Positions 1 to 42,610 of a stretch of 49,805 bases of DNA are shown here, one piece after another. This DNA is from an uncultured archaeon (GTDB lineage: Archaea; Iainarchaeota; Iainarchaeia; JAADDC01), in assembly GCA_964451455.1 (NCBI GenBank), contig CAYVHT010000002.1, positions 1-49,805 of the forward strand. Direction: 5' to 3'. Under the pieces are notes generated by a model. It did no database searches and was not told the DNA's origin. It was given only the letters and a program-made list of their open reading frames with translations. The first letter of the stretch is position 1. Each line of letters begins with the position of its first letter. Position numbers and translations under genes: made by a program.

Positions 1-231
1 TGTCCCATCCGTGAGATCTGTCCTTATCCCACGTTTCACGAGTCGTACCTTTTGACGGGCGATCCTCTGCTGCCACCTGCGCGTGCTTGTGCTGTGCATT
101 ATGCCATTGTGCTTGCACTGTATAGTGTTGTCCGTGAACAACGCATAGATTTTTCCAAATGTCCATCAATTAACAATGTGATGCGCCGATTTTACATTAT
201 GGGTGGTGATGATGTTTATTCGGAGTTGTGA
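1..231 (+). CDS. 3' end of an ORF entering from upstream of the window (function unknown)
   Basis: Frame +1 is open from nt 1 to TGA 229-231 (CPIREICPYPTFHES...MGGDDVYSEL*). It is absent from the ORF track because no start lies in the window. No motif recognised. Confidence 0.3.
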   Translation, partial: CPIREICPYPTFHESYLLTGDPLLPPARACAVHYAIVLALYSVVREQRIDFSKCPSINNVMRRFYIMGGDDVYSEL

Positions 232-745
232 CCGTGCTGCAGCGCTTCTGCGCAGGTTTTCGGACATTTTGGATCCGGCACAGCTAAATGCCTTCTCAGA
301 AGCGCTGCAAATCATACGTGCTGATTTTGAGGTAATGCTATCTGGCGGGCGCGTGCATTGTGGTCAAGCACGTGTGGATTCTGTGATTTGTGCACTAACT
401 GAGCTGCAATCTCTTGTGGTTTACGGGCCCTTATCTTCAGATATTTTAGATTTTGTAACGGTGTTCATGAACTGTGCATATAACTGGAACAAGAATGGTT
501 GTAATTCTGCTGTTGTGTACAAGCTCCTTGAAAATACGCAGGGCATTATTGATGGCAATATGTCATTATCTCAGGTGGTGTCTCAAATGTCACGCATATC
601 TGCAACGCTTTTAGCCACTGTCGGGTCTTCCGAGGCTTATAAATTGTCTAAAGAATATTTGCGGGTAATTCTTGGCGGTGGATTTATTGAGGGCGAGCCG
701 ACAGCTTCGCGGGCTCACGATTCAGGATCTTGCGGGGACGATTAA
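203..745 (+). CDS. hypothetical protein (180 aa)
   Basis: ORF track (GTG 203; in-frame ATG 209/212). Looks soluble and helical; no family recognised. Stop TAA 743-745 lies inside the TATA-like element of the next gene. Confidence 0.5.
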   Translation: MVMMFIRSCDRAAALLRRFSDILDPAQLNAFSEALQIIRADFEVMLSGGRVHCGQARVDSVICALTELQSLVVYGPLSSDILDFVTVFMNCAYNWNKNGCNSAVVYKLLENTQGIIDGNMSLSQVVSQMSRISATLLATVGSSEAYKLSKEYLRVILGGGFIEGEPTASRAHDSGSCGDD

Positions 746-757
746 ATTAAATATTTC
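743..757 (+). promoter_or_regulatory. TATA-like element for the His-x-x repeat gene (leaderless mRNA geometry)
   Basis: TTAAATTAAATATTT is centred about 25 nt upstream of GTG 775, the position expected for an archaeal TATA box placing the transcription start at or near the start codon. Confidence 0.45.
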
Positions 758-774
758 CCTGCACTATTATCTTC

Positions 775-1290
775 GTGGCCAAGAAGAACCTGCTTGCTTT
801 CATCAGATCCGAAGACGCCGGTTCTACTGGGGACAAGGTTGCCCGGGCGGGTGCGATCTTGGCAGGAATTGCGGCGGTTCCATTCATGCTCAATGGCGCT
901 TCTGCCGCCCACACAAACAGCATAACTGGCTCCTTTTCGTCTGGAACGATCACCGCAACTCACCAACACCACTCTTCTCATGCTTCCCACGCCTCCCACT
1001 CCCAACATACATCCCACGGCTCTCACGCCTCCCACTCCCAACACACGTCCCACGGCTCCCACTCCTCCCATTCCTCACACTCCTCCCACTCTTCTCACTC
1101 CTCCCACTCTTCCCATTCCTCCCACTCTTCTCACTCCTCACACTCTTCTCACTCATCCCATTCCTCCCATTCCTCACACTCCTCCCACGCCTCCCACTCC
1201 CAACACAGTTCTCACGGCTCTCATGGCAGCTGCGCTTGTGGCGGAGGGTGTGTGACTATTAGTCGTCAAACTACGACAATGCCTGGCTGA
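775..1290 (+). CDS. His-x-x triad repeat protein (171 aa) with signal-peptide-like N-terminus and C-terminal CACGGGC motif; candidate substrate of the adjacent radical SAM enzymes
   Basis: ORF track, GTG start. The N-terminus has a charged 20 aa, then hydrophobic AGAILAGIAAVPFML, then ASA/A. There are 29 consecutive in-frame H-x-x triads (nt 970-1230), followed by CACGGGC (1231-1251). Other-frame ORFs over the repeat are shadows. Confidence 0.8.
   Translation: MAKKNLLAFIRSEDAGSTGDKVARAGAILAGIAAVPFMLNGASAAHTNSITGSFSSGTITATHQHHSSHASHASHSQHTSHGSHASHSQHTSHGSHSSHSSHSSHSSHSSHSSHSSHSSHSSHSSHSSHSSHSSHSSHASHSQHSSHGSHGSCACGGGCVTISRQTTTMPG
970..1230 (+). repeat. In-frame 9-nt (H-x-x) tandem repeat, 29 units; 14 perfect HSS units at 1060-1185
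   Basis: Codon-by-codon reading gives HSS HAS HAS HSQ HTS HGS HAS HSQ HTS HGS, then (HSS)x14, then HAS HSQ HSS HGS HGS. Synonymous codons are mixed (cac/cat; tcc/tct/tca), so the repeat is perfect at protein level and imperfect at DNA level. Confidence 0.95.
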
Positions 1291-1299
1291 GGTGATCGG

Positions 1300-2013
1300 A
1301 TGCGCTTACAGTATCCACATTTTCTCGCGCTGGGCGCGACGGTGTTCGCAGTTGTTCTTATTATCATGGGCACTGCCCCACACAGCAAAATAGTTCTCAC
1401 GTACTCTGGGAGCAGAAGCGATCTTCAATGGCTTATTTCTCCAAACACGGACCTGTTCTACAGGTCTATGTTTGATAAAAATCTTTACGCTGCTTTCATG
1501 AAGATCGCAGAGAATAATATAGCAGAACTCATTCTTTGCAAGGATCCTACGCAGTATTTTTGCTGTATTAATCTCCTGTCCGAGCTTGGTCCAGGAGTTG
1601 ATTCTGCAGCGTTCCCACGCATAGATATTAACACCCTGTGCTTTGACTTGTCCAAGCCAGTGTGTGATTGTCGGATCGCATACTACTTAAAAACAGCCCC
1701 TGATGCCGATATCAATTACTTGCGTGAACATATAATCCTCCCAAGTAGGCGGGATGTGGCCCGTCTTCCATCCCCTGTACGCGGTGCAATGTATTATGCG
1801 CTTGCTCGCATGGACGTGAATGCTTGCCCACTTGTTCCTGGCGATATTGGGGGTCCTGCCTGCGTAGTGCTGCACGACGCTGCAGCCAAGGCGTACTTTT
1901 GCGGAGCATCTCATATTCCCGTAAATTACATTACGGCTTCAACCGAGGCGGATTCTAGGGTCTGCATTCCATTGCTTAGGTACTATTTTGGCTACGGCGA
2001 GGGCAATGCGTGA
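1300..2013 (+). CDS. membrane-anchored Cys-rich hypothetical protein (237 aa)
   Basis: ATG 1300 is preceded by Shine-Dalgarno (SD)-like GAGGTGA (1289-1295), 9 nt after the repeat gene stop. N-terminal TM helix (LALGATVFAVVLIIMG); 10 Cys in the remainder. No family recognised. Confidence 0.7.
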   Translation: MRLQYPHFLALGATVFAVVLIIMGTAPHSKIVLTYSGSRSDLQWLISPNTDLFYRSMFDKNLYAAFMKIAENNIAELILCKDPTQYFCCINLLSELGPGVDSAAFPRIDINTLCFDLSKPVCDCRIAYYLKTAPDADINYLREHIILPSRRDVARLPSPVRGAMYYALARMDVNACPLVPGDIGGPACVVLHDAAAKAYFCGASHIPVNYITASTEADSRVCIPLLRYYFGYGEGNA

Positions 2014-3142
2014 TTTTTCCCTCGCCCTTGACGTGTATTTGAAGGATGCTTGCCCTCTTCGTTGCAAGTATTGCTATCTGCGAAGGCATCCTCATGCTTT
2101 GACCGATTCAAATCGTAATCTCTCTCCGAGTGTGCTGGCGCGTTGGATAGCGGATGCGAGCATTTCAAAGGTGTATATCAATGTGCGTTATGGGGAGCCC
2201 GCTCTCTCTGCGCGTGGTTTGTATAGCTTAATCCAACGCCTTCGTCTGTATGGTGTTGACGTATTGTCAGCAAATGTGGTTACATCCGCTTTTCCATATT
2301 CCCCCGTATTCCCTTTACTATCCACATTGCTAACGACGCGGTTGCAGATATCTGTTGATGGCCCCTACCACGTGAACAGATTTCGAGTTCAGTCCCCCAA
2401 ACTTCATTCCCGCATTGAAGAAAATATTCGCAAGTACTTGGCCCATATGCGTGACAGCAAAATTTCCGCTGCAGTAACCGTCACCGATTTGAATTTGAAT
2501 CGCCTTCAGGATGTTCGGCAGTATTTAGAGGGTCTAGGATTTCCAAGGGCAATGTTTTCTCCTGTTGATGATGGTGTTTCGTTCGTTCTTTCTGGGAGGT
2601 ATGGGGATTATTTGCTACAATCTGCCGAGCTATTTGCTGATGTTTTCTCACGCTGGGAGCGCGGTGAATCCACTTTCCAAGCTCCGATAATGGCTGGACT
2701 AAATTCTCTACTGTATGGAAACTACTCGGAACCGGAAATATGTAATCCCATCAGACGTACTAGCGTTTTTGTTGCTCCGGATGGCAGAGTATTTCCTTGC
2801 ATTCACGCGTATTTATTATATCTTCTAGATCCCGATAATTACTCTAGCTTCCTTCTGGGTTCTATACATCTGGATAGTTTTGAAGATGTTTTTGATCGTT
2901 TTGCAGATGCTGCAGATCTTATTCGCGAGTTCAGATATATGGAGGTGGAACGCTTTTCGGAATATGGTATACTCCTTGGGTGCGAGTTCGCTTTGCACGA
3001 TTTTGCTCAACTTCATAACGTTTCTACAGATTATATTTATCAGCGGGCATCGCCTCAGGTGGAAAAGGTGCGACCGGCAGTTTTGGATCTTCTATCCACA
3101 TTTTCAAAGGATGAACTCTTGCGCTTCGGGTGGCAGTATTGA
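2006..3142 (+). CDS. radical SAM enzyme with twitch/SPASM-type C-terminal Cys motif (peptide-maturase-like), copy 1
   Basis: CX3CX2C (CPLRCKYC), GEP motif (RYGEPAL), ISVDGP..., and C-x13-G-x4-C (CNPIRRTSVFVAPDGRVFPC). ATG 2006 overlaps the upstream stop TGA 2011-2013. The ORF track lists an upstream TTG at 1988. Confidence 0.85.
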   Translation: MRDFSLALDVYLKDACPLRCKYCYLRRHPHALTDSNRNLSPSVLARWIADASISKVYINVRYGEPALSARGLYSLIQRLRLYGVDVLSANVVTSAFPYSPVFPLLSTLLTTRLQISVDGPYHVNRFRVQSPKLHSRIEENIRKYLAHMRDSKISAAVTVTDLNLNRLQDVRQYLEGLGFPRAMFSPVDDGVSFVLSGRYGDYLLQSAELFADVFSRWERGESTFQAPIMAGLNSLLYGNYSEPEICNPIRRTSVFVAPDGRVFPCIHAYLLYLLDPDNYSSFLLGSIHLDSFEDVFDRFADAADLIREFRYMEVERFSEYGILLGCEFALHDFAQLHNVSTDYIYQRASPQVEKVRPAVLDLLSTFSKDELLRFGWQY

Positions 3143-4179
3143 GTAAATATTCAATACAGGTAATGGTTACCCGTAGGTGCCCTCTTGCGTGCCCATATTG
3201 CTATGTTCAGAAGACCCTCCAAGATATGGACGCTCACGTTCTACGCGCGAGTGTTGATTTTATTAATTCAATTGTGCCTAGAAATGCGGTACTTAATCTT
3301 AATCTTACAGGGGGAGAACCATTTCTGCGTCAAGATATCATCATCTCACTGGTGCGAAGGATTTGGAATATGTGTGTATCTAAATCTTGCCTCCTTCGGG
3401 CGTATGTGAACACATCTGCATATTTGCCTGCAAAATTATCAACACTTTTGACGTTAAATAGTCTTAACGTGTCTGGGATGCGATCGTGGGTAGAGATCTC
3501 CTTAAATGGGCCGGAACACATTAATGATTATCATCGTGTGCTTCCCGGCGGTTTTGGCACTTATCGCGCTAGTTATGGGCATGCTAAGCAAATGTTGAAT
3601 TACGTCCCTGTTTTTATCCGCACAGTGCTACCACCAGTAGCTGCGGAGCACTTGGATGATTATTTGATTTGGTTTGAGCGCCGCTTCCGGGAGGGTTTTT
3701 GGCTGGCAGAGGTGGGGACTGCTATCGGGTACTTTAGCTATTCAGATGATTTCGCCAAATTTTACTCAGAGCTTGTTGACGAGTTATTGAAACTCATTGC
3801 CGATTTATATTTGAATGGCCAATTCATCTTGTGGCGCACTGTTGCCGAGAACGCGCTTTTTTCACAGTCTATTGAGCGAACCACCGAGCCGGTTGAGTAT
3901 CTCCCATGTGCTGCAGGGAAACGGCGGTTTTTGATAGATGTGGATGGTATGGTATACTACTGTACGATGTTCCGTGAGTTTGCTCCGGAGTCTGGAAAAA
4001 TCGGTTCGGTCTTTGACGGTGTGACGCTGTCACCTTTACGCGCCCCTTGCCCCTTATCAGTTTGCAAATCCGGCAGTGGTGCCATAACCAATATGCGCAA
4101 GGATTATTTGCTACTAAAAAAGATTCTCGGCAAGGATTTGTTTCGCGCATATTTGAATGATGCCAAGCGGTGGGTGTGA
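3130..4179 (+). CDS. radical SAM enzyme with twitch/SPASM-type C-terminal Cys motif (peptide-maturase-like), copy 2
   Basis: CX3CX2C (CPLACPYC), LTGGEPFL, ISLNGPEHIND, C-x12-G-x4-C (CAAGKRRFLIDVDGMVYYC), then CPLSVC. GTG 3130 overlaps the stop of copy 1 (3142). Alternative ATG at 3163. Confidence 0.85.
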   Translation: MAVLSKYSIQVMVTRRCPLACPYCYVQKTLQDMDAHVLRASVDFINSIVPRNAVLNLNLTGGEPFLRQDIIISLVRRIWNMCVSKSCLLRAYVNTSAYLPAKLSTLLTLNSLNVSGMRSWVEISLNGPEHINDYHRVLPGGFGTYRASYGHAKQMLNYVPVFIRTVLPPVAAEHLDDYLIWFERRFREGFWLAEVGTAIGYFSYSDDFAKFYSELVDELLKLIADLYLNGQFILWRTVAENALFSQSIERTTEPVEYLPCAAGKRRFLIDVDGMVYYCTMFREFAPESGKIGSVFDGVTLSPLRAPCPLSVCKSGSGAITNMRKDYLLLKKILGKDLFRAYLNDAKRWV

Positions 4180-5519
4180 TGTCCCCTTTTTTTGCGTACT
4201 TGTTATTGTTGGTGTTCGTGGGAGCTCTGGTTGTTGCTATCGCCATATTTTATGCACGTAAATTGTTGCGTCGGAAATGTTGTTTGACGTTGAACGTGCG
4301 CTGGGAGCAGGTGATTGTCGGGGCTGCCGCGTTTACCGTGATTTTAATTCTTGGGGCAAAAGCACCATTATTTGGTGATGACTGTTTTGACCCGTTGATT
4401 TTTCCCTTATTGTGGCGAAATGGTTTTGCAGTTCCATATTTCATGCCTATTGGTATTTTTGTATATTATTTATTATATTTGCTGGTTGGCTTGGGCCCTA
4501 TTTATATGTATGTCTTGATCATGCTCAATGCAATTCTCGCATCTTTGGTGATTGCGCATGCGTGGGGCCGGGTTCGCTGGCTCGCGCTCTTACCACTAAG
4601 TATTCCTCTCGTCCCGTATATTTACGGGTCCCCGTATCTTGTGGCTGGCCTTGCTACAGTATTTGGTTATTTCTCTCTGGTGCGTTTTCGTGATGGGGAT
4701 GAGGTGGGTGGTTTTCTTCTTGGTATTTTGGCCACATATACGCGTGAAGAACTCATCTTAATTCCGTTGTTTTACTTATTTCTCTGGCTTCTTCGAAGGA
4801 GCTGGTCAAAGACCATTCTTGCTGCACTGCTTATTCCCTATTCGCTATTTGTGTATGCATATTCGACTGCGTGGTTGCATCCGCACTTTGATGCATCTAT
4901 CATCCACACTAACGTGTTCGTTCATATTTTCCGCGCATTTATGGCGAACATTCTTGCAGTTGCGGCAGATATTCTAACACTAGTTCCAATAGGTTTCATA
5001 GCGTTGTTTGCGTTTATTGGCAATATCTTTTCATACGTGGGTGGGGAATACTTCAAGCAATATGTGGTGGCGTCACTTCTTCTGCTTCCCGTCATGCGCC
5101 GCATGGATGGTCGGACATCTTTCGTACTTTTCGTAAGTCTGGTACTGCTAAATTGTGCGCTTTTGTACGCTGCGCCACAGCTTCCTTCATTATATCGCGC
5201 CGTTTATGTTCATTTGGCTAAAACATATGCACAGACCAGCGATATCTATGTTGCTGCTTTCGCACGTGGGGTGTATCCACGAGTCCTTGGTATTACTGCC
5301 ACTGCGCCAATCTATGTTCTTTCGGGGGGGAGAGCGAATGTTGTCAATGTTGTAGATACCGCATCTGTGCCCCATTTTGCTTGCAAATATAATGCTCTGC
5401 ACAACGTTGACTATATCGTCTGTGATCGGTTTGTTCGCGAAGTGTGTGGGTGCAATTATGGCCCCGTTGTTCAGAGCTATGGGGACGTCTTTATTGTTTT
5501 GAACGATGCCAAAAAATGA
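4179..5519 (+). CDS. polytopic integral membrane protein (about 11-12 TM), last gene of the repeat/radical SAM operon
   Basis: ATG 4179 overlaps the upstream stop by one nt (TGATG at 4177-4181), with SD-like GGTGGGTG upstream; the ORF track start is GTG 4170. Strongly hydrophobic throughout, with a DD pair in the first predicted external loop (PLFGDDCFDP). Family not recognised. Confidence 0.75.
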   Translation: MSPFFAYLLLLVFVGALVVAIAIFYARKLLRRKCCLTLNVRWEQVIVGAAAFTVILILGAKAPLFGDDCFDPLIFPLLWRNGFAVPYFMPIGIFVYYLLYLLVGLGPIYMYVLIMLNAILASLVIAHAWGRVRWLALLPLSIPLVPYIYGSPYLVAGLATVFGYFSLVRFRDGDEVGGFLLGILATYTREELILIPLFYLFLWLLRRSWSKTILAALLIPYSLFVYAYSTAWLHPHFDASIIHTNVFVHIFRAFMANILAVAADILTLVPIGFIALFAFIGNIFSYVGGEYFKQYVVASLLLLPVMRRMDGRTSFVLFVSLVLLNCALLYAAPQLPSLYRAVYVHLAKTYAQTSDIYVAAFARGVYPRVLGITATAPIYVLSGGRANVVNVVDTASVPHFACKYNALHNVDYIVCDRFVREVCGCNYGPVVQSYGDVFIVLNDAKK

Positions 5520-5528
5520 GTTTGGGGG

Positions 5529-7865
5529 CTACCCCCTCCCCCACCTCTTCGCCAGCTCCTGATACTCCTGAATCTGCTCAGGAGTGAGGGAGGGTTTCAC
5601 CTTCTTTAGTGCTTCCTCGAAGTGCTTCATGCGCACAGCATCTATGTGCTTCTTGCCCCCCTTGATCGCCTCGCGTATCGCTGCCATTCCCGCTTCGCGG
5701 CAGACTGCGGCTATGTCTGCGCCAGTGTACCCCTCTGTTCTCTTGGCCAGTTCGCGCAGGTCCACATCGTCCGCCAGCTTCATGCCTCTCGTGTGGACTT
5801 TGAATATTTCGTATCGTCCTTCCTCGTTCGGAGGTGGCACGAAGATTAGCTTTTCTAGCCTGCCCGGACGGAGCAGCGCCGGATCTACCAGGTCTGGCCT
5901 GTTGGTTGTTGCTATGACCACTACGTCCTTCATCTCTGCCACACCGTCCATCTCGGACAGCAACTGTGCAACGATTCTCTCCGTGACTCTGTTTGTGTCA
6001 CTGCCTCGGACCGGCGCTATGGCGTCAATCTCATCAAAGAACACAATGCTGGGCGCCACGAGCTTTGCCCTGCGGAATATCTGGCGCACGGCCTTCTCAC
6101 TCTCACCCACCCACTTGCTCAGTATCTCTGGGCCCTTGATTGCAATGAAGTTGGCATTTGCCTCGTTGGCCACCGCCTTTGCTATGAGTGTCTTGCCCGT
6201 TCCAGGAGGACCGTAGAGCAGTATTCCTCGTGGTGGTTCAATCCCTGCCTCTTTGAAGAGCTCGGGATACTTCAGTGGCCACTCTATCGCTTCTCGGACC
6301 TCGTTCTTCACGCTCTCTAGGCCACCGATGTCATCCCAGCGGACCTTTGGGACTTCTACCATTACCTCTCGCATGGCGGAAGGCTCAACACGCTTGAGGG
6401 CGTCAAGGAAGTCCTGATACTTCACACTCAACGACTCGAGGACTTCCTTTGGCAGCGGGGACTCACCCGCTTTCTTTATATCTGGTATTGCGCGACGCAG
6501 GGCTATCATGCCTGCTTCCTTGCAGAGGGCAGCCAGGTCCGCTCCCGTGTAGCCGACGGTGAGATCTGCGATCTCTGCAAACATTTCATCGCGCAACGCA
6601 TCTTCAAGCTTTCTCTTTTTCTCTTCTGGCAGGTCTTCGGCGAGTTTTCTTGCCTCTTCTAGCGTGTTTGCTTTCGTTATCTTTTCATAGTCTTTGTCTT
6701 TCTCTGCCAGTCGCTCTGCCACTCGTTTCACTGCTGCTAGGTCGTAGTAAACGTCCAGTGGCATCTTGCGGCTGTGGATCTTTAGAATTTCTATTCTGCC
6801 CTCGCGGTCGGGTACGCCTATTTCTATCTCTCTGTCAAATCTCCCGGGCCTGCGGAGCGCTGGATCTATATCATCTGGCCTGTTCGTCGCGCCTATGACT
6901 ATTACGTCCCCCCTGCTCTTCAGACCGTCCATTAGGGTTAGGAGTTGCGCCACGATTCTTCTCTCCACATCTCCCTTCGTTTCCTCGCGCTTCGGCGCTA
7001 TGGCATCTATCTCATCTATGAAGATAATCGCTGGTGCGTTCTTCTGTGCCTCCTCAAATACCTTCCTCAGGTTCTCTTCGGACTGGCCGTAGTACTTGCT
7101 CACGATCTCCGGCCCGTTTATTGTCAGGAAGTGCGCGTTCGCCTCGTTGGCCACGGCCTTTGCCAGGAGTGTCTTTCCTGTGCCAGGGGGACCGTAGAGG
7201 AGCACACCCTTGGGCGGTTCAATGCCCAGTCGCTTGAACACCTCCGGGTGGCGGAGGGGTAGCTCTACCATCTCGCGAATGAGTTCAATTTCTTTCTTTA
7301 GGCCGCCTATGTCTTCATAGGTCACGTCGCTCACGTGGGCCTGTACCGGTTTGTCTGATATGCGCACCTTTGTCTTCTCTGTTATGATTACTGGGCCTGC
7401 GGGCTTCGTCTTGGCGACCACGAAGGGCACGGCGAGGTATTGATATCCGTAGGGAATGTACGTCTGGACTGCATCTCCTTGTATTACTGGTGTATTAAGC
7501 AGAAAGTCCTTTATCTCCGTGCTATAGTCCAGTATCTCCTTGGGATACTCACCCTCTGGCGGCGCTAGGAGCACTTCCGTTGCCGGTTTAGCTTCTACCT
7601 TCTCCACATTAACCATTTCGTCTATGCCCACGCCAGCATTCTGCCTGAGCGTTCCATCCATGCGGATAATGTTGGGGTTCGCATACTCATCGTCTGGTGC
7701 GAGTCTAAGCGCCTTCGCCACCGTTTCTTTCTCTCCCTTGATGAGTATGACGTCTCCCTGTTTTAGCCCTAACTCGTCAAATATGACTGCAGGAATGCGC
7801 GCCACCTTTCTCCCAACGTCTCTATCATAAGCGCGTTTTACCTTGAGCGTAACCATATTTTTCAC
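5529..7865 (-). CDS. cdc48: Cdc48/VCP-type AAA+ ATPase (two AAA modules), paralog 1
   Basis: 778 aa. GPPGTGKT occurs twice (Walker A); Walker B as IIFIDEID and IVFFDEID; N-domain MVTLKVK...[11 protein letters not shown] 7865 (alternative ATG 7856). Confidence 0.95.
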
Positions 7866-8251
7866 CTCCTTGGTAGCCCCATTTTTTCGTCGATCGTACG
7901 GGCCACCTTTTTCAGATCTTCAAACATGCGGATGACATCCCTCTCCATTTCTTCTATGCTTCGAAGAAACGTTGCTGCCCTGAGCCGATAACTGCGCCCC
8001 TCTTTTACGAGGAGCCCCATGTCCACAAGCTTGCTGATGTGATAACTGGTGGAAGTTCTCGGATCCCCTAGGATCTCTGATAGTTCCGTCGCATTCATGC
8101 TTCTTTCTGCCATATGCTCCAGTATCTTTGTATAGCGCTCTAGCATGGCATCAGCCACTCCCAGCGATGATAGTAACCACTGCAAGTTCTCTTCCAGCTC
8201 GTCGCTGTAGGGTCTTTCCCGGTGTATGATTGTTAGAGTTCTTGTTGTCAT
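7862..8251 (-). CDS. winged-helix transcriptional regulator (ArsR/Phr-like), co-oriented with and overlapping cdc48
   Basis: HTH segment [38 protein letters not shown] 8251 (track lists TTG 8257). Stop TGA overlaps the cdc48 GTG (GTGA). Confidence 0.7.
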
Positions 8252-8275
8252 CGACAATAATTTTTCGTCATAAGA

Positions 8276-13619: not shown

Positions 13620-13961
13620 TTACTGTGCTATGGTTTGATTTTTCTTCTCCCGTAAGTATGGCTTCCTCCGCCTCGCTCCACATGCAAGGCATATGTATTC
13701 CACGTGAGGCTGCGGTTCCGGCTTGAGACGGATAATTACATTTTCTCCCGGGATCCAGAAGCTGTTACACTTCTTGCAGAATCGGTATTTCCACTCTTCC
13801 GGGATCGGAACGTTGTATCTCTGCCCTATTTTCCTTGCCAGCCACACGTATCTTCTCGCTCGCTCTGGGTGCTCCCTTGCGTTCTTCTCTGCTAGCTGGA
13901 AGAGCCTAACCATCCGTTCTATAGCAATTTTCTGTATCTTTTTCTTCTCCCACTTGCGCAC
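13620..13961 (-). CDS. rnp4: RNase P protein component 4 (Rpp21/Rnp4)
   Basis: KKKIQKIAIERMVRLFQLAEKNAREHPERARRYVWLARKIGQRYNV, plus Zn-ribbon FCKKCNSFW...CLACG. Start reassigned to in-frame GTG 13961 (113 aa). The 245-aa track ORF would overlap bud32 by about 350 nt on the opposite strand. Confidence 0.8.
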   Translation of the reverse strand: MRKWEKKKIQKIAIERMVRLFQLAEKNAREHPERARRYVWLARKIGQRYNVPIPEEWKYRFCKKCNSFWIPGENVIIRLKPEPQPHVEYICLACGARRRKPYLREKKNQTIAQ

Positions 13962-13982
13962 GTATCCATTTTCTTCATTCTC

Positions 13983-13988
13983 TTTAAA
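13983..13988. promoter_or_regulatory. single palindromic TATA element (TTTAAA) shared by divergent rnp4 and bud32
   Basis: Exactly 21 nt separate TTTAAA from GTG 13961 (minus) and from GTG 14010 (plus). No other AT-rich box lies in the 48-nt spacer. Confidence 0.45.
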
Positions 13989-14009
13989 CGGTTCTTCTCC
14001 CCTTGCTTT

Positions 14010-14615
14010 GTGGAGCTCATAAAGAAGGGTGCGGAGGCGGAACTCTACAGGATTATGTATAATGGTCGCCCCGCGGTGCTCAAGCGCAGAATCCCGAAGC
14101 GCTACCGCGTGCCCGAGCTTGACGAGCGGATACGGAAGACGCGGACGCGGAGGGAGGCGAGACTGCTTGAAAGGGCCCGCCGTGTCGGTGTCCTCACTCC
14201 AGAAGTTCTTTCCGTGGACGACAAGCGTATGGAGATCGTTCTCGAGTTCGTGGAGGGTGAGAGGGCCAAAGAGTATCTTCTGCGCACCAGAGACATTAAT
14301 CTCATGCGAGATGTTGGAGAGTTTGTGGCCCGTCTCCATAAGAACAACATCGTTCACGGAGATCTTACGACTTCCAACATCATCCTCTCTCCGAAGGGCA
14401 TATACTTCCTAGACTTTGGTCTTGGAGCGGTTTCTGACTCGGTGGAGGACAAGGCTGTGGATCTCGTGTGCTTTGAGAAGTCCTTCATTGCCACACATTC
14501 TGACATCGCTGAGGAAGGGTGGGCAGCCTTCCGCGAGGGCTATTCAGTTTACTCTGAATCTGATATCGTCTGGAAGCGTGTAGAGCAGGTGAAGAGACGA
14601 GCACGTTACCTCTGA
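14010..14615 (+). CDS. bud32: Bud32/PRPK atypical kinase (KEOPS subunit), stand-alone
   Basis: GAEAELY...VLKRRIPKRYRVPELDERIRKTRTRREARLLERA...IVHGDLTTSNIIL...YFLDFGL. Confidence 0.9.
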   Translation: MELIKKGAEAELYRIMYNGRPAVLKRRIPKRYRVPELDERIRKTRTRREARLLERARRVGVLTPEVLSVDDKRMEIVLEFVEGERAKEYLLRTRDINLMRDVGEFVARLHKNNIVHGDLTTSNIILSPKGIYFLDFGLGAVSDSVEDKAVDLVCFEKSFIATHSDIAEEGWAAFREGYSVYSESDIVWKRVEQVKRRARYL

Positions 14616-17215: not shown

Positions 17216-18526
17216 ATGCAGCGACGGGGTCAGACGAATGTAGAGTATCTTTTGCTCACAGGTGGCGTCATTCTCGTGGCAGTAGTTGGTGGGTATTATG
17301 CAGTTTCTGCCACGTCTAACGCATTTCACGAGCTGAATTCTGCTGCTGGCGGAGGAAGTACTGTTATTACGCCACCCGTCTCGGATATGCCCCCCAGCAT
17401 CACGTCGTTTACCGTGAATCCAACATCTGGCGACATTAGCACGACGTTCAACATCTCTTGTAGCGCAAGTGATGATCACGGTATATCTTCCATTACTCTC
17501 TATGACGGCTCTAACGCGATTCATTCCTGCTCGTCGTCTCCCTGTACATATGCCACAAATTTATCATCTGGCACTCACAGTATCTCCTGCAAGGTGACGG
17601 ATACTAGCGGGCATACAGTTTCCGCGACTCCGATTAGCGTCACCGTTTCTACAACTCCTCCTGACACAACTCCGCCTACTGTTAGTGCCAACGTAACGGA
17701 TCTTGGGTCTGGCCAATATACTCTATCCTGCACTGCGTCTGACGCTAGTGGAATATCTTCTGTTACTGTTATACTTGATAATAGTCCCGAAAAGCACTGT
17801 TCGTCTTCCCCCTGTGCGCAGACCGTTACTGTTTCCGCGGGCAGTCACGAGTTGAATTGTGTTGCGGAGGACAGGGCGGGGAACACGAATTACGCAATCA
17901 AGTCCTTTTCTTATACTCCGTGCACCGATGAATGTACGTCTGGTTCTGTTCAGTTCCGCTGTGACGGTAACGTACTCCAGAGACGTTCTTGCGGCAACTT
18001 TGACTCCGATTCGTGTACTGAGTGGTCTTCTTGGTCCGACGTTAATAACTGCGACGACTATGACGGTAAATACGGATCGGAGTACCGGGACTATTACTGT
18101 GACTCTGCAACGCATAGCTGCAAGTACTCGGTCACGTGCACCGATGAATGCACTTCGGACCAGAATCGCTGCAACGGTAGCGTTTTCCAGGTCAGCAAGT
18201 GTGGCAACTATGATTCGGATCCCTGTCTTGATTATGGCGGGTGGCAGGATGTGAATAACTGTGATGACTACGATGGCTGGTATGGAAATGAGTATCACGA
18301 CTACTCTTGTGATACTACGTCTTCAACCGGGTGTTCTTACACCGTGACGCAGACATGTTCTGACGAGTGTACTGAAGGAAATTCTAAGGCCATTTTGTGC
18401 CCGAAATGGGTATGCCAGCATCTTCCTGGGCTTCCAGGGTGCCACTGGAAGCTGAATTGGGTTATATGTGGATATAAGCACTGCAAGACTACCTGTGACT
18501 CCGATCCGTGCACCGAGTGGTGTTGA
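17216..18526 (+). CDS. large pilin-like/adhesin-like protein with class III signal peptide, two Ig-like repeats and three Cys-rich modules
   Basis: N-terminus MQRRG/QTNVEYLLLTGGVILVAVVGG. Two repeats of about 85 aa share SC.ASD..GISS.T...HCSSSPC. Two modules of about 72 aa begin CTDECTS... (nt 17921 and 18137), followed by a truncated third (CSDECTEG...CDSDPCTEWC). Confidence 0.75.
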   Translation: MQRRGQTNVEYLLLTGGVILVAVVGGYYAVSATSNAFHELNSAAGGGSTVITPPVSDMPPSITSFTVNPTSGDISTTFNISCSASDDHGISSITLYDGSNAIHSCSSSPCTYATNLSSGTHSISCKVTDTSGHTVSATPISVTVSTTPPDTTPPTVSANVTDLGSGQYTLSCTASDASGISSVTVILDNSPEKHCSSSPCAQTVTVSAGSHELNCVAEDRAGNTNYAIKSFSYTPCTDECTSGSVQFRCDGNVLQRRSCGNFDSDSCTEWSSWSDVNNCDDYDGKYGSEYRDYYCDSATHSCKYSVTCTDECTSDQNRCNGSVFQVSKCGNYDSDPCLDYGGWQDVNNCDDYDGWYGNEYHDYSCDTTSSTGCSYTVTQTCSDECTEGNSKAILCPKWVCQHLPGLPGCHWKLNWVICGYKHCKTTCDSDPCTEWC

Positions 18527-18534
18527 GGTGTTGC

Positions 18535-18990
18535 ATGATGGCGACAATACGCAGCAAATATATGGTCGTTGCTGGGGCTGTAGTAGTGATTCTTGCGATT
18601 CTGGCGGTTGCGGCGATATCTTCGCATCCTGCGAAGTCCCCTGCCTTTAGCTGTGCCCCCTTGGACTATAACTACTATGATGCCAACTTTACAGAAGTGT
18701 CTAATGCCCCCGCATACCTCTCGAGCGTTTTACCACAGTACTTTTCGGACGTTCACTATGTAGTCTGCTACCCTGGTTTTGCAGTGGCCGTGTATGGAAA
18801 GGGTCCGTGTGGTTCTGCTTCCGCGATCTGTAATGTTCAGGTAAATGTGGACAACAATACTGCGTACACTCGCTGCGTCGTTCTTTCGGATGCTAATGGG
18901 CATGCAAATCGCTGGGCCGCGGCGCAGTGCAGTGATATAAATGCGCAGATTCACCGGGCGATGGAAGGTAATCTCACCACCACTCCGTGA
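18535..18990 (+). CDS. membrane-anchored hypothetical protein (151 aa)
   Basis: ATG 18535 lies just after the upstream stop (track start 18508 overlaps it). N-terminal TM helix VVAGAVVVILAILAVAAI; Cys-containing ectodomain. Confidence 0.55.
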   Translation: MMATIRSKYMVVAGAVVVILAILAVAAISSHPAKSPAFSCAPLDYNYYDANFTEVSNAPAYLSSVLPQYFSDVHYVVCYPGFAVAVYGKGPCGSASAICNVQVNVDNNTAYTRCVVLSDANGHANRWAAAQCSDINAQIHRAMEGNLTTTP

Positions 18991-20194
18991 TTTTTCTTTG
19001 ATTCACACTTTCTCTTATCAAAACGCTTCTTGATACCCATCTCTCCACAGGAATCCTCATCTTCGGCCGTATGTGGTCAAGGACTTCATTTAGTGATCCG
19101 AACCGTTCATATCCATTCTCTAACGCTTCCCTCACATTTTCCCTCACTTGCCATACGCCCAAGGGGATGTAGTATCCCTCGTGTACCTCGCGGAAAATCA
19201 CCACGCGTGCCTGCTTTTGCATTTTTAGCAGATGCTCAATCACGGCGATCCGTGCGGCGTAGTATGATCCACCCACATTCTCTGCATAGCCCTTTCTCCC
19301 GTTGTGGCCTTCCCAGTCGTTTACCAAGTAAGGCTGCGTTCCCGAGTACCAGACGGAGCCGGGTGCCCATGCTTCGATCAGTTCAAAGCCCCAGACGTCG
19401 GGCATGAAGATTATGTAGAAATGATTGTCAAATAGGTGGCTCTCGTAGAGATAATAGCTATCCACTGGCTTGAACCTCTTTATCTTGTCAATTTCTTTTC
19501 TGTATATGATGTCGTCCGTTGCTGTTATTGCCCATCTCGTCGGTACCAGCTTCCTGTTGCGCGGTATTCCCAGGACGCCAGCGGAGAGTATGCGAGAGAG
19601 CACATAAACATCGTAGCCCCTCTCAAATAGCTGTATCACTGCGTCCTCTGCCTTTACCTCGTCGTAATAAAATTTCTCCACTTTTTTGTCGGTTTTTGGG
19701 TTTTCCTGCGGGATGATCTTTTTTGCAGGGGCTTTTGGGCCCATAGGTGCCACGAACTGACCAAATTCCACCCGCGGTTTTGGTTCTTTTTCCAGGATTG
19801 CCTCCACTGTTACTGGCTTCTTGCTCATGGCCAGTTCTTGCAACGTTAGTACGTCGTTCGTGGGGTTTGCTGCCGTGTATACATCGGCGCGTATTGTGGG
19901 ACGTATGAGTGAGGATCGTATGCCCACAATTTCGTCTATGCTCATCTCCGTCCAGTACCGCGGATCGTCTGCTATGCTAACGAACTGGGACGTTTCCATG
20001 GGTGCAACTTCGACCTTCGGGTAGTTTCTCCAACTAATGAAGATGGCGGGGGGCGTGGGTGCGTTAATCTCCGTGCTTTTGGGTATTGTCGCCTCCATAA
20101 TTTTTTTCTGCTCAAGTATTGGGCATTTTGGCAGTCCACACCAGAGGCGGCCCTTGCAGCGAACGCAGAGCTTTGGATCAATGATCTTTACCAC
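18974..20194 (-). CDS. Nre-family protein (DUF650/DUF651; putative DNA repair), archaeal
   Basis: N-terminal CVRCKGRLWCGLPKCP motif and size of about 400 aa match my recollection of the Nre_N/Nre_C family. GTG start. Confidence 0.5.
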   Translation of the reverse strand: MVKIIDPKLCVRCKGRLWCGLPKCPILEQKKIMEATIPKSTEINAPTPPAIFISWRNYPKVEVAPMETSQFVSIADDPRYWTEMSIDEIVGIRSSLIRPTIRADVYTAANPTNDVLTLQELAMSKKPVTVEAILEKEPKPRVEFGQFVAPMGPKAPAKKIIPQENPKTDKKVEKFYYDEVKAEDAVIQLFERGYDVYVLSRILSAGVLGIPRNRKLVPTRWAITATDDIIYRKEIDKIKRFKPVDSYYLYESHLFDNHFYIIFMPDVWGFELIEAWAPGSVWYSGTQPYLVNDWEGHNGRKGYAENVGGSYYAARIAVIEHLLKMQKQARVVIFREVHEGYYIPLGVWQVRENVREALENGYERFGSLNEVLDHIRPKMRIPVERWVSRSVLIRESVNQRKITEWW

Positions 20195-20213
20195 GATGTA
20201 AAGACGTCGTTAG

Positions 20214-20222
20214 TATTAAATA
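20214..20222. promoter_or_regulatory. single central TATA element (TATTAAATA) between divergent nre-like gene and pilus ATPase
   Basis: Centre 20218 is 24 nt from GTG 20194 (minus) and 26 nt from GTG 20244 (plus). The spacer is 49 nt. Confidence 0.4.
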
Positions 20223-20243
20223 CGGGTTTCTCGTTATGGAAAC

Positions 20244-21836
20244 GTGGGGTATCTCAAGGATTTGCTTGAGGAAGCCAAGGGCAAGAACAAGAATGGAGAG
20301 TCCACTTTGGACTCTGAAGCGGCTGTTAAGAAGCAGAATGATGCGTCAATTTCATCCTCTGAGCCGTCCGGCATTGAAGGGAAGGAGAAAGTGCTCGTGG
20401 ATTCCTACGGAGATGTCAAAATCTATCGTGTGAAGGGCGATCCGCTATTCTGGTATGTCGTTCCCGTTCCGCGACCGACGTCGGGTGAGCGCAAGATTAT
20501 AAACCTTTTGAAGGAGGCTACAACCCGTATAGTATCTCTCACGACGTCTCAGATCCGTGATCCTGAGGCGAAGAAGAATGTATATCGCCAGAAAGTCCTT
20601 GAGATCATCGATTCAGTTCCTGAGCTGGGTATCCCTCGGACGAAAAGAGAGTTCTACGCAGAGGTCGTTGTAAGGGAAATGGTTGGCTACGGCGTGTTAG
20701 ATCCCCTCGTGAACGATGAGCTGCTGGAAGAGATCATGGTTATCGGCCCCAAACGCCCTGTTTACGTCTTCCACCGCAAGTATGGGATGATGAAAACCAA
20801 TGTGGAGTTTTACGAGGACAAAGAGATTCAAGCAATCATCGAGAAGATTGCCAGAGATGTTAACAGGCATATCGATGCGATGAATCCGCTCCTTGATGCT
20901 CGCCTGCCCGACGGCTCTCGTGTGAACGCTACTATTCCACCTGCTTCTGTGGATGGTTCTACGATCACTATTAGAAAGTTCCGCAAGGATCCGTACACCG
21001 TTCTTGATCTTATCGGGTTCGGGACAATGTCCCCAGAGCTCGCTGCATTTCTCTGGTTGGCTGTTGATGGTATGGGTGCTAAACCAGCCAACATTCTTGT
21101 CTCTGGTGGTACCGGTTCTGGAAAGACCACAACGCTAAACGTTCTTGCTACGTACATTCCCGCTCACGAACGTATTATTACAATAGAGGACACTGCAGAG
21201 CTTAATTTGCCTTTGGAGCACTGGGTGCGTTTAGAGGCTCGCCCGCCAAGCATAGAAGGAACTGGAGAGATCTCCATGGACGTTCTCGTGAAGAACGCCC
21301 TGCGCATGCGCCCGGACCGCATCATAGTGGGGGAGGTACGTCACAAGGAGGCGTCTACTCTGTTTACAGCTATGAACACTGGCCACGATGGTTGTATGGG
21401 CACAATTCACGCCAACAGTGCTGAGGAGACCATGGTGCGCATCATGTCACCACCCATGAACGTTCCGAAGGTTATGGCAAGCGCGCTAGATTTCATACTC
21501 GTTCAGAACCGCATCCATGATCGTAGAAAGGGTACTATCCGTCGCGTTGTAGAGTTTGCAGAGGTTCGCGAGGTGGATGGGGATCCCAGAACGTTCACGA
21601 TATTCTCATGGGATGCTGCCAAGGACGAGCAGGTGTTGGTGGACGAGGACATACGTTACTTGAAGACTCTTTCAGACTTTACTGGCTTGAGCATTGATGA
21701 GTTGCGGGACGAGTGGAAAAGGAGAAAGGACTACCTGGAGAGGTTGAGGAACAGCGGCGTCAAGGGCATTAAAGCCGTCAAGTCTGCAATTCAGGAGTAT
21801 TACGAGGGGGCTGAGAAACGATGGAAGAAGATGTAG
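20244..21836 (+). CDS. type IV pilus/archaellum-type secretion ATPase (VirB11/PilB/ArlI family)
   Basis: Walker A VSGGTGSGKTTTLNVL, Walker B RIITIEDTAEL, RMRPDRIIVGEVR, HDGCMGTIHAN. Confidence 0.9.
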   Translation: MGYLKDLLEEAKGKNKNGESTLDSEAAVKKQNDASISSSEPSGIEGKEKVLVDSYGDVKIYRVKGDPLFWYVVPVPRPTSGERKIINLLKEATTRIVSLTTSQIRDPEAKKNVYRQKVLEIIDSVPELGIPRTKREFYAEVVVREMVGYGVLDPLVNDELLEEIMVIGPKRPVYVFHRKYGMMKTNVEFYEDKEIQAIIEKIARDVNRHIDAMNPLLDARLPDGSRVNATIPPASVDGSTITIRKFRKDPYTVLDLIGFGTMSPELAAFLWLAVDGMGAKPANILVSGGTGSGKTTTLNVLATYIPAHERIITIEDTAELNLPLEHWVRLEARPPSIEGTGEISMDVLVKNALRMRPDRIIVGEVRHKEASTLFTAMNTGHDGCMGTIHANSAEETMVRIMSPPMNVPKVMASALDFILVQNRIHDRRKGTIRRVVEFAEVREVDGDPRTFTIFSWDAAKDEQVLVDEDIRYLKTLSDFTGLSIDELRDEWKRRKDYLERLRNSGVKGIKAVKSAIQEYYEGAEKRWKKM

Positions 21837-22987
21837 ACTTGAACGATCTTAAGAAGACTATTCTTGGCGATTCTAAAAAGAACGCTCCCAAACAGCCAGT
21901 GTCGGATAGGAAACAGGAAAAGAAGACAATAGATAGCGTTGATGAGATTGTACAGAGGATAGAGGAGAAGTACAGGCAGGAAGGGGCCTATATTCGGCGC
22001 GAAAACGCCGAGCCGGAGATCGATATTAACAAGGTGTTGGCTCCAGAGGTTACGGTCTCGGGCAGCCCTGCAGATCTTGCCGAGTCTGACAGCGGTTTCA
22101 TACGTTTTGCGGGAAAGATCTACTTGAAGTTCCAATCTTTCTTTGACTCTCTTGCGAATCGCATATCCAGTTCAGATTTCCTAAAAAAGCTGGATTGGGA
22201 CCTCTATGCTGCGGGTCTTCCCTTTACGGGCTCGCAGTACCTGATACTCACCCTTGTCATCGCATCCGTGTTGGCGTTGATAGCATTCTTCATCTCTATT
22301 CCCATCTTTTTGGTCCGCGGAAACCCCGTACTTGTGGCTATCGGCCCAATCCTGCTATCCTTTTTGGTGTTTCTGTTTACATACGGCTTTGCCCGCGTGT
22401 ATCCACAATCCATAGCCTCTAACCGTTCCCGCGCAGCTGAGCGGTATCTCCCCTTTGCTCTTCGCCATCTCGCTGTGGAGATCCGTGCAGGCATGGGTCT
22501 ATATCAGGCCATGCGTGCAGTGGCTGTCGCTAACTATGGAGAGCTTTCAGAGGAGTTTAAGCGCACCCTTCGTGAGATCGATGAAGGGAAGCCTATGGAG
22601 GTAGCTCTCTCAAACCTTGCAGCCCGTTCGAAGAGCAAGGGCATGCGCAGGGCGGTTGCTTCCATTCTTCGTGCTGTCAGGATTGGTGGGAACTTGTCAG
22701 ATACGATTATGAGCATCGCGAAGGACGTCTCATTTGAGCAGAGGCAGAAAGTGGCTGCTTACAGTGAGAAGCTGAATTTCTTTGGCGTACTTTTCATGTT
22801 CGTAGGTGTCGTGTTTCCTGTGATGCTAGCCATGCTGTCCACGATCGGATATGCACCAACGTCCGGTAAACTCCTTGCCGCGTTTCGTTTCCCGCCCGCC
22901 CTCCTTATGGTGGCGTTCTTGATAGCGTTTCCAGGATTCCTGTTGCTGTTCTACATGTTCGTGAGGATGTCGGATCCAATGAGGTGA
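21821..22987 (+). CDS. T2SS-F domain membrane protein (TadB/TadC / ArlJ-half-like), copy 1
   Basis: YLPFALRHLAVEIRAGMGLYQAMRAV...EFKRTLREIDEGKPMEVAL and flanking TM helices. Overlaps the ATPase stop. Confidence 0.8.
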   Translation: MEEDVDLNDLKKTILGDSKKNAPKQPVSDRKQEKKTIDSVDEIVQRIEEKYRQEGAYIRRENAEPEIDINKVLAPEVTVSGSPADLAESDSGFIRFAGKIYLKFQSFFDSLANRISSSDFLKKLDWDLYAAGLPFTGSQYLILTLVIASVLALIAFFISIPIFLVRGNPVLVAIGPILLSFLVFLFTYGFARVYPQSIASNRSRAAERYLPFALRHLAVEIRAGMGLYQAMRAVAVANYGELSEEFKRTLREIDEGKPMEVALSNLAARSKSKGMRRAVASILRAVRIGGNLSDTIMSIAKDVSFEQRQKVAAYSEKLNFFGVLFMFVGVVFPVMLAMLSTIGYAPTSGKLLAAFRFPPALLMVAFLIAFPGFLLLFYMFVRMSDPMR

Positions 22988-22991
22988 AGTT

Positions 22992-23888: not shown

Positions 23889-23937
23889 TCTTTATATACT
23901 CCCTTTTCGTTATACTCACGTCATTGGAGGTGGTATT

Positions 23938-24135
23938 ATGGATAATCGCGGTCAGACCACATTTGAGTACCTTTTGCTCGTGGGCGGCGTAGTCGTGCTC
24001 GGCGTCCTCGTGGTCTATCTGTTGACCACTAGCGTGAAGAGCAGTGCAACGGATATAAATGAGCAGCTGAAGCAGACGACCACGGCGCTGAATACGGCAA
24101 CCAACAGGTATGCGAATAACATTGCGAATATCTAA
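23938..24135 (+). CDS. small type IV pilin (class III signal peptide), 65 aa
   Basis: ATG 23938 is preceded by GGAGGTGG. N-terminus MDNRG/QTTFEYLLLVGGVVVLGVLVVYLL. Confidence 0.8.
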   Translation: MDNRGQTTFEYLLLVGGVVVLGVLVVYLLTTSVKSSATDINEQLKQTTTALNTATNRYANNIANI

Positions 24136-39614: not shown

Positions 39615-39624
39615 TGGACCGGAA

Positions 39625-39630
<6 letters not shown>
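39615..39630 (-). other. 3' arm of the 23S processing stem
   Basis: TGGACCGGAAACGCAG (plus) is the perfect reverse complement of 42605-42620. Confidence 0.8.

Positions 39631-42604
<2,974 letters not shown>

Positions 42605-42610
<6 letters not shown>

Follow-up and report, generated by a model that had tools for sequence, protein, structure and literature searches.

His-Xaa-Ser (Hxs, or HXS) systems, with the components HxsA, HxsB, HxsC and HxsD (TIGR03979, TIGR03978, TIGR03977 and TIGR03976, respectively), were defined in silico by Haft and Basu in 2011, as cited in PMC9062424. The HXS system of E. coli is an antiphage system that blocks the entry of phage DNA (Li et al. 2026, PMC13128918). 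In that system HxsB and HxsC, with HxsD, are required for N-terminal processing of HxsA, and HxsA carries a +8 Da modification in a SHRSS motif that is proposed to be installed by HxsB/HxsC before the protein is exported; the structure behind this shift is undefined, and electrostatic trapping of DNA has been proposed for HxsA (PMC13128918). In the survey of the same work 99.7% of HXS systems fall in Pseudomonadota, and archaea go unmentioned (PMC13128918). Here we analyse a stretch of 49,805 nucleotides from an uncultured archaeon of the Iainarchaeota (GenBank assembly GCA_964451455.1, contig CAYVHT010000002.1, positions 1 to 49,805; the whole stretch is called the window below), in which a gene for a His-x-Ser repeat protein is followed by genes for two radical SAM enzymes and two membrane proteins. 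On balance we lean towards reading this locus as an archaeal variant of the Hxs protein-maturation system.

The first-pass annotation of this DNA had taken the repeat protein for an undescribed type of precursor. This does not hold, since His-Xaa-Ser repeat proteins have been named (HxsA and HxsA2 to HxsA4 in NCBIfam) since 2011 and a function was published in 2026 (PMC13128918). The only comparable case in the literature that we consulted is one cluster of Mucilaginibacter lappiensis, uncharacterised, in which an HxS precursor is accompanied by two radical SAM enzymes unrelated to HxsB and HxsC (Kostenko et al. 2022, PMC9062424). The combination of an HxS motif with two non-Hxs radical SAM enzymes is shared with our locus and, as a precedent, supports its reading as an Hxs variant. 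By its description, with which alone we compared it, the Mucilaginibacter cluster differs in that it is bacterial, has several short precursors and also encodes a dehydratase and an alcohol dehydrogenase.

Layout of the locus and comparison with described systems

The main features of the locus, all on the forward strand, are as follows.

743-757, forward: A/T-rich TATA-like box TTAAATTAAATATTT, about 18-30 nt before the GTG at 775, read directly
775-1290, forward: gene 1 (g1), precursor of an HxsA-like His-x-Ser repeat protein, 171 residues
853-906, forward: within g1, hydrophobic core of the signal peptide AILAGIAAVPFML and an A-S-A|A site of signal-peptidase type, from hydropathy
961-1230, forward: within g1, array of 30 His-x-x triads, the presumed target of modification, from direct reading and from repeat and pattern analysis
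1231-1251, forward: within g1, Cys tail C-A-C-G-G-G-C, read directly and followed by the 12-residue end VTISRQTTTMPG
1289-1295, forward: Shine-Dalgarno-like GAGGTGA preceding the ATG of g2 at 1300, read directly
1300-2013, forward: gene 2 (g2), predicted membrane-anchored protein with one N-terminal transmembrane helix and an extracytoplasmic domain with 10 Cys
1988 or 2006-3142, forward: gene 3 (g3), radical SAM enzyme with CPLRCKYC
3130-4179, forward: gene 4 (g4), radical SAM enzyme with CPLACPYC
4170 or 4179-5519, forward: gene 5 (g5), predicted polytopic membrane protein

The open reading frames (ORFs) and junctions, read directly, are as first described, with five packed genes on one strand between 775 and 5519. 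A gap of 9 nt separates g1 from g2 (between 1290 and 1300); the ATG of g3 at 2006 (alternatively TTG 1988) overlaps the g2 stop TGA 2011-2013; g4 begins at GTG 3130 (or TTG 3139), in overlap with the g3 stop TGA 3140-3142; and g4 and g5 join in TGATG 4177-4181, with ATG 4179 as the likely start of g5. Such tight packing with overlapping stops and starts argues for co-expression of the five genes. The TATA-like box is also present, at a distance from GTG 775 that brackets the 25 nt or so given earlier, and its position suggests a leaderless or short-leader mRNA for g1. The downstream limit is close, with g5 ending 9 nt from a convergent CDC48 gene (5529-7865). The upstream limit of the five-gene unit is less certain than first described, because only 770 nt of contig precede g1; for the same reason HxsB, HxsC and HxsD could lie just off the contig. 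The G+C content is 0.45 across g3-g5 (positions 2001-5000) compared to 0.50-0.54 in the flanking housekeeping genes, a drop that is compatible with horizontal acquisition of the operon.

Like the bacterial HXS loci, this one encodes a signal-peptide protein with tandem HxS triads beside two divergent radical SAM enzymes, and in both cases maturation is presumed to precede export. The differences are considerable. The host is archaeal; g1 has 30 triads rather than 5-8, and a Cys tail; the mature protein has one Arg and no Lys, and lacks a peptidoglycan-binding domain. The gene order is substrate-first, HxsD is missing and there are two extra orphan membrane proteins. The two enzymes score 24-39 bits where the Hxs cut-offs are 268-370; they have no N-terminal extension, and three instead of seven C-terminal Cys. 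The layout of g1, that is a signal peptide, a linker and a C-terminal HxS array, is that of the short HxsA2-type proteins of NCBIfam. However, the scores of g1 and of the related cluster described below stay under the cut-offs of the rare NCBIfam variants (HxsA2, HxsA3, HxsA4 and HxsC4; cut-offs 65 for HxsA3, 55 for HxsA4 and 500 for HxsC4), and the window has no HxsC4-like enzyme.

The ladder protein and its relative in a second cluster

The g1 product consists of a 26-residue n-region, a short hydrophobic core, the A-S-A|A site, a 17-residue linker rich in Ser and Thr, the triads and the Cys tail, in this order. The array of consecutive H-x-x triads is as first described except for the count, which is 30 and not 29; 26 of them are strictly H-x-S, and the rest read HSQ (three) and HQH (one). 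If the protein is cleaved after A-S-A, as its sequence suggests, the mature form has 127 residues, among which 50 are Ser, 32 His (25% His), 3 Cys and 1 Arg, with no Lys, Asp or Glu. At the DNA level, Tandem Repeats Finder reports a period of 9 with 24 copies (985-1200), and a pattern of six triads has 12 matches in the window compared to none in 100 shuffles. The 16 HSS units are spelled in 8 DNA versions that differ only synonymously, while the other five frames over the array give heterogeneous peptides or stops.

The only non-generic NCBIfam matches of g1 are to HxsA4 (23.3 bits, cut-off 55) and HxsA3 (20.3 bits, cut-off 65), both under threshold. There is no match to the HxsA model TIGR03979, and the bacterial HxsA proteins that we examined have no counterpart of the Cys tail. 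A class III (prepilin) signal was considered for g1 because an A24-like peptidase is encoded in the related cluster and another at 24110-25072 of the window; it was rejected as the main reading in view of the short hydrophobic core and the conserved AxA site.

The non-repetitive part of g1 has a relative elsewhere. Over residues 3-64 (62 residues) it shares 72.6% identity with an ORF, missed by the gene callers, on four metagenomic contigs (L261, L262, L263 and L265; tblastn E 2e-23), in which the n-region KKNLLAFIRSE[DE]AG... ahead of the hydrophobic core is conserved and the AxA site is kept as AQA|A. Over these 62 codons, 14 are identical, 31 differ synonymously only and 17 differ non-synonymously, which corresponds to 65% nucleotide and 73% amino-acid identity; the segment AAHTNSITGSFSSGTITA[ST]HQHHSSH is nearly invariant. 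In L262 the ortholog is preceded by a TATA-like TTTTTATAT about 21 nt before its ATG. Since the variation among HSS units is all synonymous and the codons of the ortholog differ mostly synonymously, we conclude from these sequences that g1 is a real gene under purifying selection. The ortholog sits at broken contig ends inside the HxS array, with its tail and downstream genes beyond the contigs. Four of the five contigs L261-L265 end inside the array, which suggests that assembly breaks at the repeat.

The same contigs link g1 to known Hxs components. The only relative of g5, P0010, is encoded in the cluster on L261-L265 (seen at positions 1-15265 of L261, and also on L262-L265). In its neighbourhood, within 12 kb, we find a bona fide HxsB (453.7 bits, cut-off 370), an HxsD-domain protein, another ORF that is weakly HxsD-like, and radical SAM enzymes resembling HxsC or HxsC4, four in number (92-193 bits). 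The radical SAM enzymes of the cluster match HxsC4 best, at 151-193 bits against a curated cut-off of 500. Further members are a pseudo-radical SAM protein, an A24-like peptidase, a second polytopic membrane protein and three Cys-rich membrane-anchored or secreted proteins (213 residues with 14 Cys, 197 with 14 Cys and 139 with 6 Cys). The g1 ortholog lies 1-9 kb from the HxsB, the HxsD-like protein and the HxsC/HxsC4-like enzymes. The families of g1 and g5 are thus linked to a true HxsB/HxsD cluster elsewhere, and by this co-occurrence at least one other organism has them as parts of an expanded Hxs-type system. The 12-gene expanded cluster itself appears to be undescribed so far.

Automatic gene callers skipped the HxS ORF in every assembly examined (L082 and L261-L265), so that HxS-repeat genes are likely to be under-represented in protein databases. 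In L082 (JGI 3300026488, equivalent to window positions 4-4197) two antisense ORFs of 68 residues were called in place of g1, and the g4 call was shortened to 317 residues, by which its CX3CX2C motif was lost. A scan of viral contigs (IMG/VR) for six HxS triads returned mostly simple repeats, plus four canonical HxsD-HxsB-HxsC-HxsA loci (L084, L143, L158 and L160) on contigs classed as viral, which we used as references. Their short, secreted HxsA proteins are laid out like g1 but end in only 6-8 triads; the HxsA of L084 passes no NCBIfam HxsA model. All 56 matches of a metagenome DNA scan for the (HxS)4-CxCxxxC junction were (HCC)n trinucleotide repeats, since WSN also encodes Cys, and were rejected; as the collection is incomplete (the JGI contig of the window itself was not returned), this is a weak negative.

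The radical SAM enzymes, the membrane proteins and the rest of the window

Both enzymes carry the motifs first described, CPLRCKYC with Cx13Gx4C in g3 and CPLACPYC with Cx12Gx4C in g4, as read in the translations. The profile searches that the first-pass annotation had proposed for them gave a divided answer. The Pfam Radical_SAM model (PF04055, gathering threshold 29.5) is passed by both, with 31.2 bits for g3 and 32.4 for g4, and the SPASM model (cut-off 21.5) only by g3 (22.6 bits; g4 15.6). By sequence, g3 and g4 belong in the SPASM/twitch subgroup of the radical SAM superfamily. Their C-terminal domain holds the auxiliary motif and one further conserved Cys, and these three Cys rather than seven indicate twitch-like or partial-SPASM enzymes and not the 7-Cys SPASM type of HxsB. 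The two are 25% identical to each other over 129 residues, which marks them as an old pair.

No curated NCBIfam family is passed by either enzyme. The top match is PapB (NF047865, cut-off 340), with 86 bits for g4 and 44 for g3, and it is generic because true HxsB proteins also score 105-158 bits on this model. On the HxsB model (TIGR03978, cut-off 370) g3 has 24 bits and g4 38.9; on the HxsC model (TIGR03977, cut-off 267.9) g4 has 27.4 bits and g3 no match; and a profile built from seven HxsC-like proteins matches only the CX3CX2C region. Compared to four reference HxsB proteins the identity is 18-26%, and g3 and g4 lack both the N-terminal extension of about 90 residues and the CxxCxxxxxCxxxC block of HxsB. 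The cyclophane families are equally distant (AmcB 30.6 bits with a cut-off of 425, FxsB 19.2 with 370, YhhB 17-27 with 445). The anSME model (TIGR03942, cut-off 349) gives 27 bits for g3 and is outside the top 25 matches of g4. The locus has neither a sulfatase nor a C/S-x-P/A-x-R motif, and the window has no sulfatase.

Among PDB sequences g3 has no match, whereas g4 is matched best by ChlB, a triceptide synthase (E 3e-5). The structure model of g4 (pTM 0.74, core pLDDT 85-95) has as its nearest folds anSME (PDB 4K36-4K39; E 2e-15, TM-score 0.62-0.67, 19% identity), CteB, ChlB (E 2e-12, rank 12), SuiB and SkfB. Each of these enzymes acts on a protein or peptide, and most abstract a hydrogen from the side-chain C-beta or a neighbouring carbon. 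The top match, anSME, is similar in length to g4, has no RRE domain, and acts on the C-beta of Ser or Cys in a protein that is exported afterwards; unlike g4 it possesses a complete SPASM domain, which holds two auxiliary clusters. With these folds, and with no housekeeping model near its cut-off, the earlier assignment of both enzymes to the peptide- or protein-maturase type rather than to a housekeeping clade is upheld.

Among 5.8 billion proteins g4 has one true homologue (P0002, 40% identity, on the 1.7-kb contig L001), and its distant neighbours are a mixture of maturase families. A convergent fragment of a second radical SAM/SPASM gene follows P0002 on L001 (1155-1727, reverse strand), and 20 nt upstream of P0002 another gene ends, unlike the C-terminus of g3. 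A scan of a genome collection with the g4/P0002 alignment was dominated by generic CPLxCPYC enzymes (PqqE-like, Proteobacteria), which were rejected; it showed no close relative, but neither did it return the genome of the window itself, so that it is uninformative. The contexts of the distant matches P0003, P0006 and P0007 hold no HxS ORF. At the P0003 locus (L269, and L270 961-9458) a tandem radical SAM/SPASM pair follows a GT2 gene, two genes for polytopic PMT_2 (GT-C) glycosyltransferases and a B12-radical SAM gene, with pilin-like genes nearby; it is again an arrangement of tandem radical SAM genes with a polytopic membrane protein.

The membrane proteins are near-orphans. The transmembrane segment of g2 is at residues 8-26; the protein has no homologue among the 5.8 billion proteins of the word-indexed database and no family in Pfam, NCBIfam or PADLOC, and it is marginally similar only to the 213-residue, 14-Cys transmembrane protein of the L261-L265 cluster. 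For g5, about 12-14 helices and a small C-terminal Cys-containing beta domain are predicted, and again there is no family in Pfam, NCBIfam or PADLOC and no homologue in the word-indexed database. Its sole relative P0010 (30% identity, E 5e-29) was found by an exhaustive HMMER search of 1.84 billion representative proteins, and the two share the motifs FGDD.F.P and LGILA..TR.EL..IPL. The single-sequence AlphaFold model of g5 has a pLDDT of 46 and is unusable for fold comparison. One idea is that g5 may be a GT-C-type transferase, drawn only from the FGDD loop motif and the PMT_2 genes at the P0003 locus.

Other features of the window are listed below; the membership of the first two in the system is uncertain.

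1-231, forward: 3' end of an ORF (g00) truncated at the edge of the contig, 76 residues
203-745, forward: upstream ORF (g0), 180 residues, 6 Cys, no transmembrane segment
17216-18526: class III signal-peptide protein with Ig-like domains
20244-21836: T2SSE ATPase
21821-23888: two T2SSF proteins
24110-25072: A24 prepilin peptidase
30760-32289: second T2SSE ATPase

The edge ORF begins at a Cys codon and reads CPIREICPYP...; its C-x5-C (CPIREIC) resembles the last part of the tail CxxCxxxxxC of HxsC-like radical SAM enzymes, a match that is not significant. It has no significant match to the HxsB or HxsC profiles or in NCBIfam, and we rejected it as the C-terminus of either protein. The second assembly, L082, breaks at most 3 nt from window position 1. 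The upstream ORF g0 has no Pfam, NCBIfam or PADLOC match and no counterpart in the related cluster, and was rejected as HxsD, the HxsD profile giving E 0.42 for g0 and E 0.8 for g00. No ORF of the window, which starts at nt 1, matches HxsD (TIGR03976 / PF27806).

The window is archaeal by content (large-subunit rRNA, RNase P RNA, MCM, Nre, S3Ae, RLI and eRF1). The complete archaeal large-subunit rRNA (39621-42614, reverse strand) has a G+C content of about 0.65; elsewhere in the window it is about 0.50, a difference that hints at a thermophile. Since protein ORFs start at 42869 and no small-subunit rRNA is adjacent, the rRNA genes appear to be unlinked. The archaeal RNase P RNA (37233-37469, reverse strand) has only 237 nt against a model of 288 positions, and a gene for an Rpr2/Rpp21 protein subunit is at 13620-14357. 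The last five features of the list lie in a type-IV-pilus-like assembly locus (17216-25072 and 30760-32289).

Proposed mechanism, competing explanations and meaning

Our best inference, made by analogy with E. coli HXS and from the presence of the g1 ortholog in a cluster with a true HxsB, is that g1 would be the substrate of the radical SAM enzymes and would be modified before export. In this proposal g1 would be both substrate and effector, made as a pre-protein in which a long, conserved n-region and a Sec-type signal peptide precede the 30 triads and the CxCxxxC tail. The n-region may delay export or recruit the maturases. One or both of the cytoplasmic enzymes g3 and g4, probably a new twitch-like clade of the peptide- and protein-maturase branch, would then modify g1. 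The likeliest first step would be abstraction of a C-beta hydrogen by the 5'-deoxyadenosyl radical, the target being the triad Ser or, for the second enzyme, a tail Cys; a division of labour is suggested by the pair of enzymes and the two classes of motif (array and tail). The outcome might be addition to the His imidazole, giving a triceptide-like His-Ser crosslink (-2 Da, with HaaB and HtkB as precedents), an anSME-like oxidation of Ser (-2 Da), or the +8 Da chemistry of Hxs type. After export and cleavage following A-S-A, the 127-residue product rich in His and Ser would act at the cell envelope with the Cys-rich anchored g2 and the polytopic g5. By analogy with the bacterial systems it may form an envelope barrier to incoming viral DNA, a role for which metal binding is an about equally likely substitute. 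Of the earlier proposal of a cluster for a peptide made on the ribosome and modified after translation (RiPP), maturation by the radical SAM enzymes is thus kept, but the locus is better described as maturing a secreted protein effector than as making a classical RiPP product.

Several points weigh against reading the locus as an Hxs variant. The pairing of the enzymes with g1 is drawn from adjacency only. No HxsB, HxsC or HxsD homologue is found in the 49.8-kb window, and g3 and g4 resemble HxsB no more than they do other SPASM maturases. The composition of mature g1, with its single Arg and no Lys, and its lack of a peptidoglycan-binding domain mean that the DNA-trapping model of E. coli is not directly transferable. 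The flanking genes (CDC48, MCM, ribosomal proteins) are housekeeping genes, and PADLOC did not detect defence genes in the window; its only matches, generic ones of the viperin model to the radical SAM core, were rejected. Finally, the evidence of conservation is slight: g1 and g5 have a single ortholog lineage, g4 has one homologue and g2 has none, so that it comes down to one other lineage, known from contigs without taxonomic placement.

Among the competing explanations, a secreted metal-binding protein survives best, as a minor but real possibility. In this reading the ligands for Ni, Zn, Cu or Co would come from the His ladder and the CxCxxxC tail, and crosslinks made by the radical SAM enzymes would pre-organise or stabilise them in a thermophile. 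The mature protein, with 25% His, three clustered Cys, no acidic residues and one basic residue, suits such a role; the N-terminus expected after cleavage, A-H-T..., is a potential amino-terminal metal site; an ArsR-family regulator is encoded 2.3 kb from the operon (7862-8257); and a His-crosslinked copper-binding ribosomal peptide is mentioned in PMC10206099. However, genes for metal transporters, metal chaperones or metal resistance are missing from the operon, the related genes elsewhere stand in an Hxs-type cluster, and the only Hxs function that has been tested is antiviral.

We consider it rather unlikely that the system is a RiPP pathway of the triceptide type, in which a cyclophane synthase would staple each H-x-S from His-C2 to the C-beta of residue 3 (-2 Da per triad) to give a poly-cyclophane product. 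The substrate logic of the triceptide synthases ChlB, HaaB and HtkB is an aromatic-X-X triad, which may have His at position 1 (HaaB acts on HAA and HtkB on HTK; PMC11499958), and such an aromatic1-X2-X3 motif occurs 30 times in g1. The enzymes are also of similar size, g3 and g4, like ChlB, have no N-terminal RRE extension, ChlB is the best PDB sequence match of g4 and among its top folds, and there are the weak matches to AmcB, YhhB and FxsB. Yet the cyclophane models are far under their cut-offs (17-31 bits compared to 370-445) and no family model is passed, anSME and CteB fit the fold of g4 better than ChlB, and the C-terminal domain of g3 and g4 has three Cys. Moreover, g1 is a secreted protein of 171 residues with a signal peptide and 30 motifs, unlike the leader-core precursors with 1-3 motifs, and the sole Hxs modification that has been measured amounts to +8 Da rather than -2 Da (PMC13128918). 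As this alternative concerns the chemistry only, it is compatible with the Hxs reading at the level of the system.

It is less probable still that the enzymes act on the Cys-rich g2 (or on the Cys domain of g5), in the manner of QhpD/QhpC or of the thioethers of ranthipeptides and sactipeptides, with the HxS protein as an unmodified partner. The best NCBIfam matches of both enzymes are indeed thioether-forming (PapB, and further the QhpD, CcpM and CXXX-repeat families), CteB ranks among the top folds of g4, and Cys-rich proteins with a transmembrane anchor recur in the L261-L265 cluster. Nevertheless the PapB match is shared by true HxsB and so is generic, g1 is the conserved element whereas g2 has no detectable homologue, and in the characterised HXS system the HxS protein is the substrate. 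Lastly, g1 might be taken for a spurious ORF of low complexity that merely spans a simple repeat in the DNA, the real gene being another overlapping ORF or none. This might be thought from the antisense calls of the JGI pipeline and from the many (CAYNNNTCN)n matches in other collections that are non-coding simple repeats, but it is already effectively refuted by the synonymous-only variation confined to the H-x-S frame, the stops in the antisense frames, the non-repetitive N-terminal domain conserved with far fewer non-synonymous than synonymous changes (a dN<<dS pattern) in a genome only 65% identical in DNA, the presence of a signal peptide, and an appropriate promoter and Shine-Dalgarno context.

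With the Hxs reading, the kind of system is already known; what is new is the archaeal host, the 30 triads, the Cys tail, an orphan twitch-type radical SAM pair in place of HxsB, HxsC and HxsD, and two near-orphan membrane proteins. Because one repeat-protein family is accompanied by unrelated maturases in different genomes, the His ladder, and not a given enzyme, is the conserved core of the system. A blind spot of annotation also comes to light at this locus, in that the repeat ORF is skipped by gene callers. The chemistry of radical SAM enzymes on HxS motifs is undefined even in E. coli HXS, and g1, with 30 near-identical motifs, two small enzymes and no HxsD, could be unusually tractable for it. 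More speculatively, and as a tentative proposal only, archaea may own large Hxs-type envelope systems in which the ladder has been re-paired with a new clade of twitch-type enzymes, processive on up to 30 triads and with a second reaction on the CxCxxxC tail, to make a new surface effector (an antiviral barrier or a metal ladder) that needs two membrane-protein families without relatives elsewhere. The locus would extend Hxs-type systems to archaea, where antiviral defences at the level of the envelope are essentially unknown, and the product of g1 may, by analogy with its bacterial counterparts, be such an envelope barrier.

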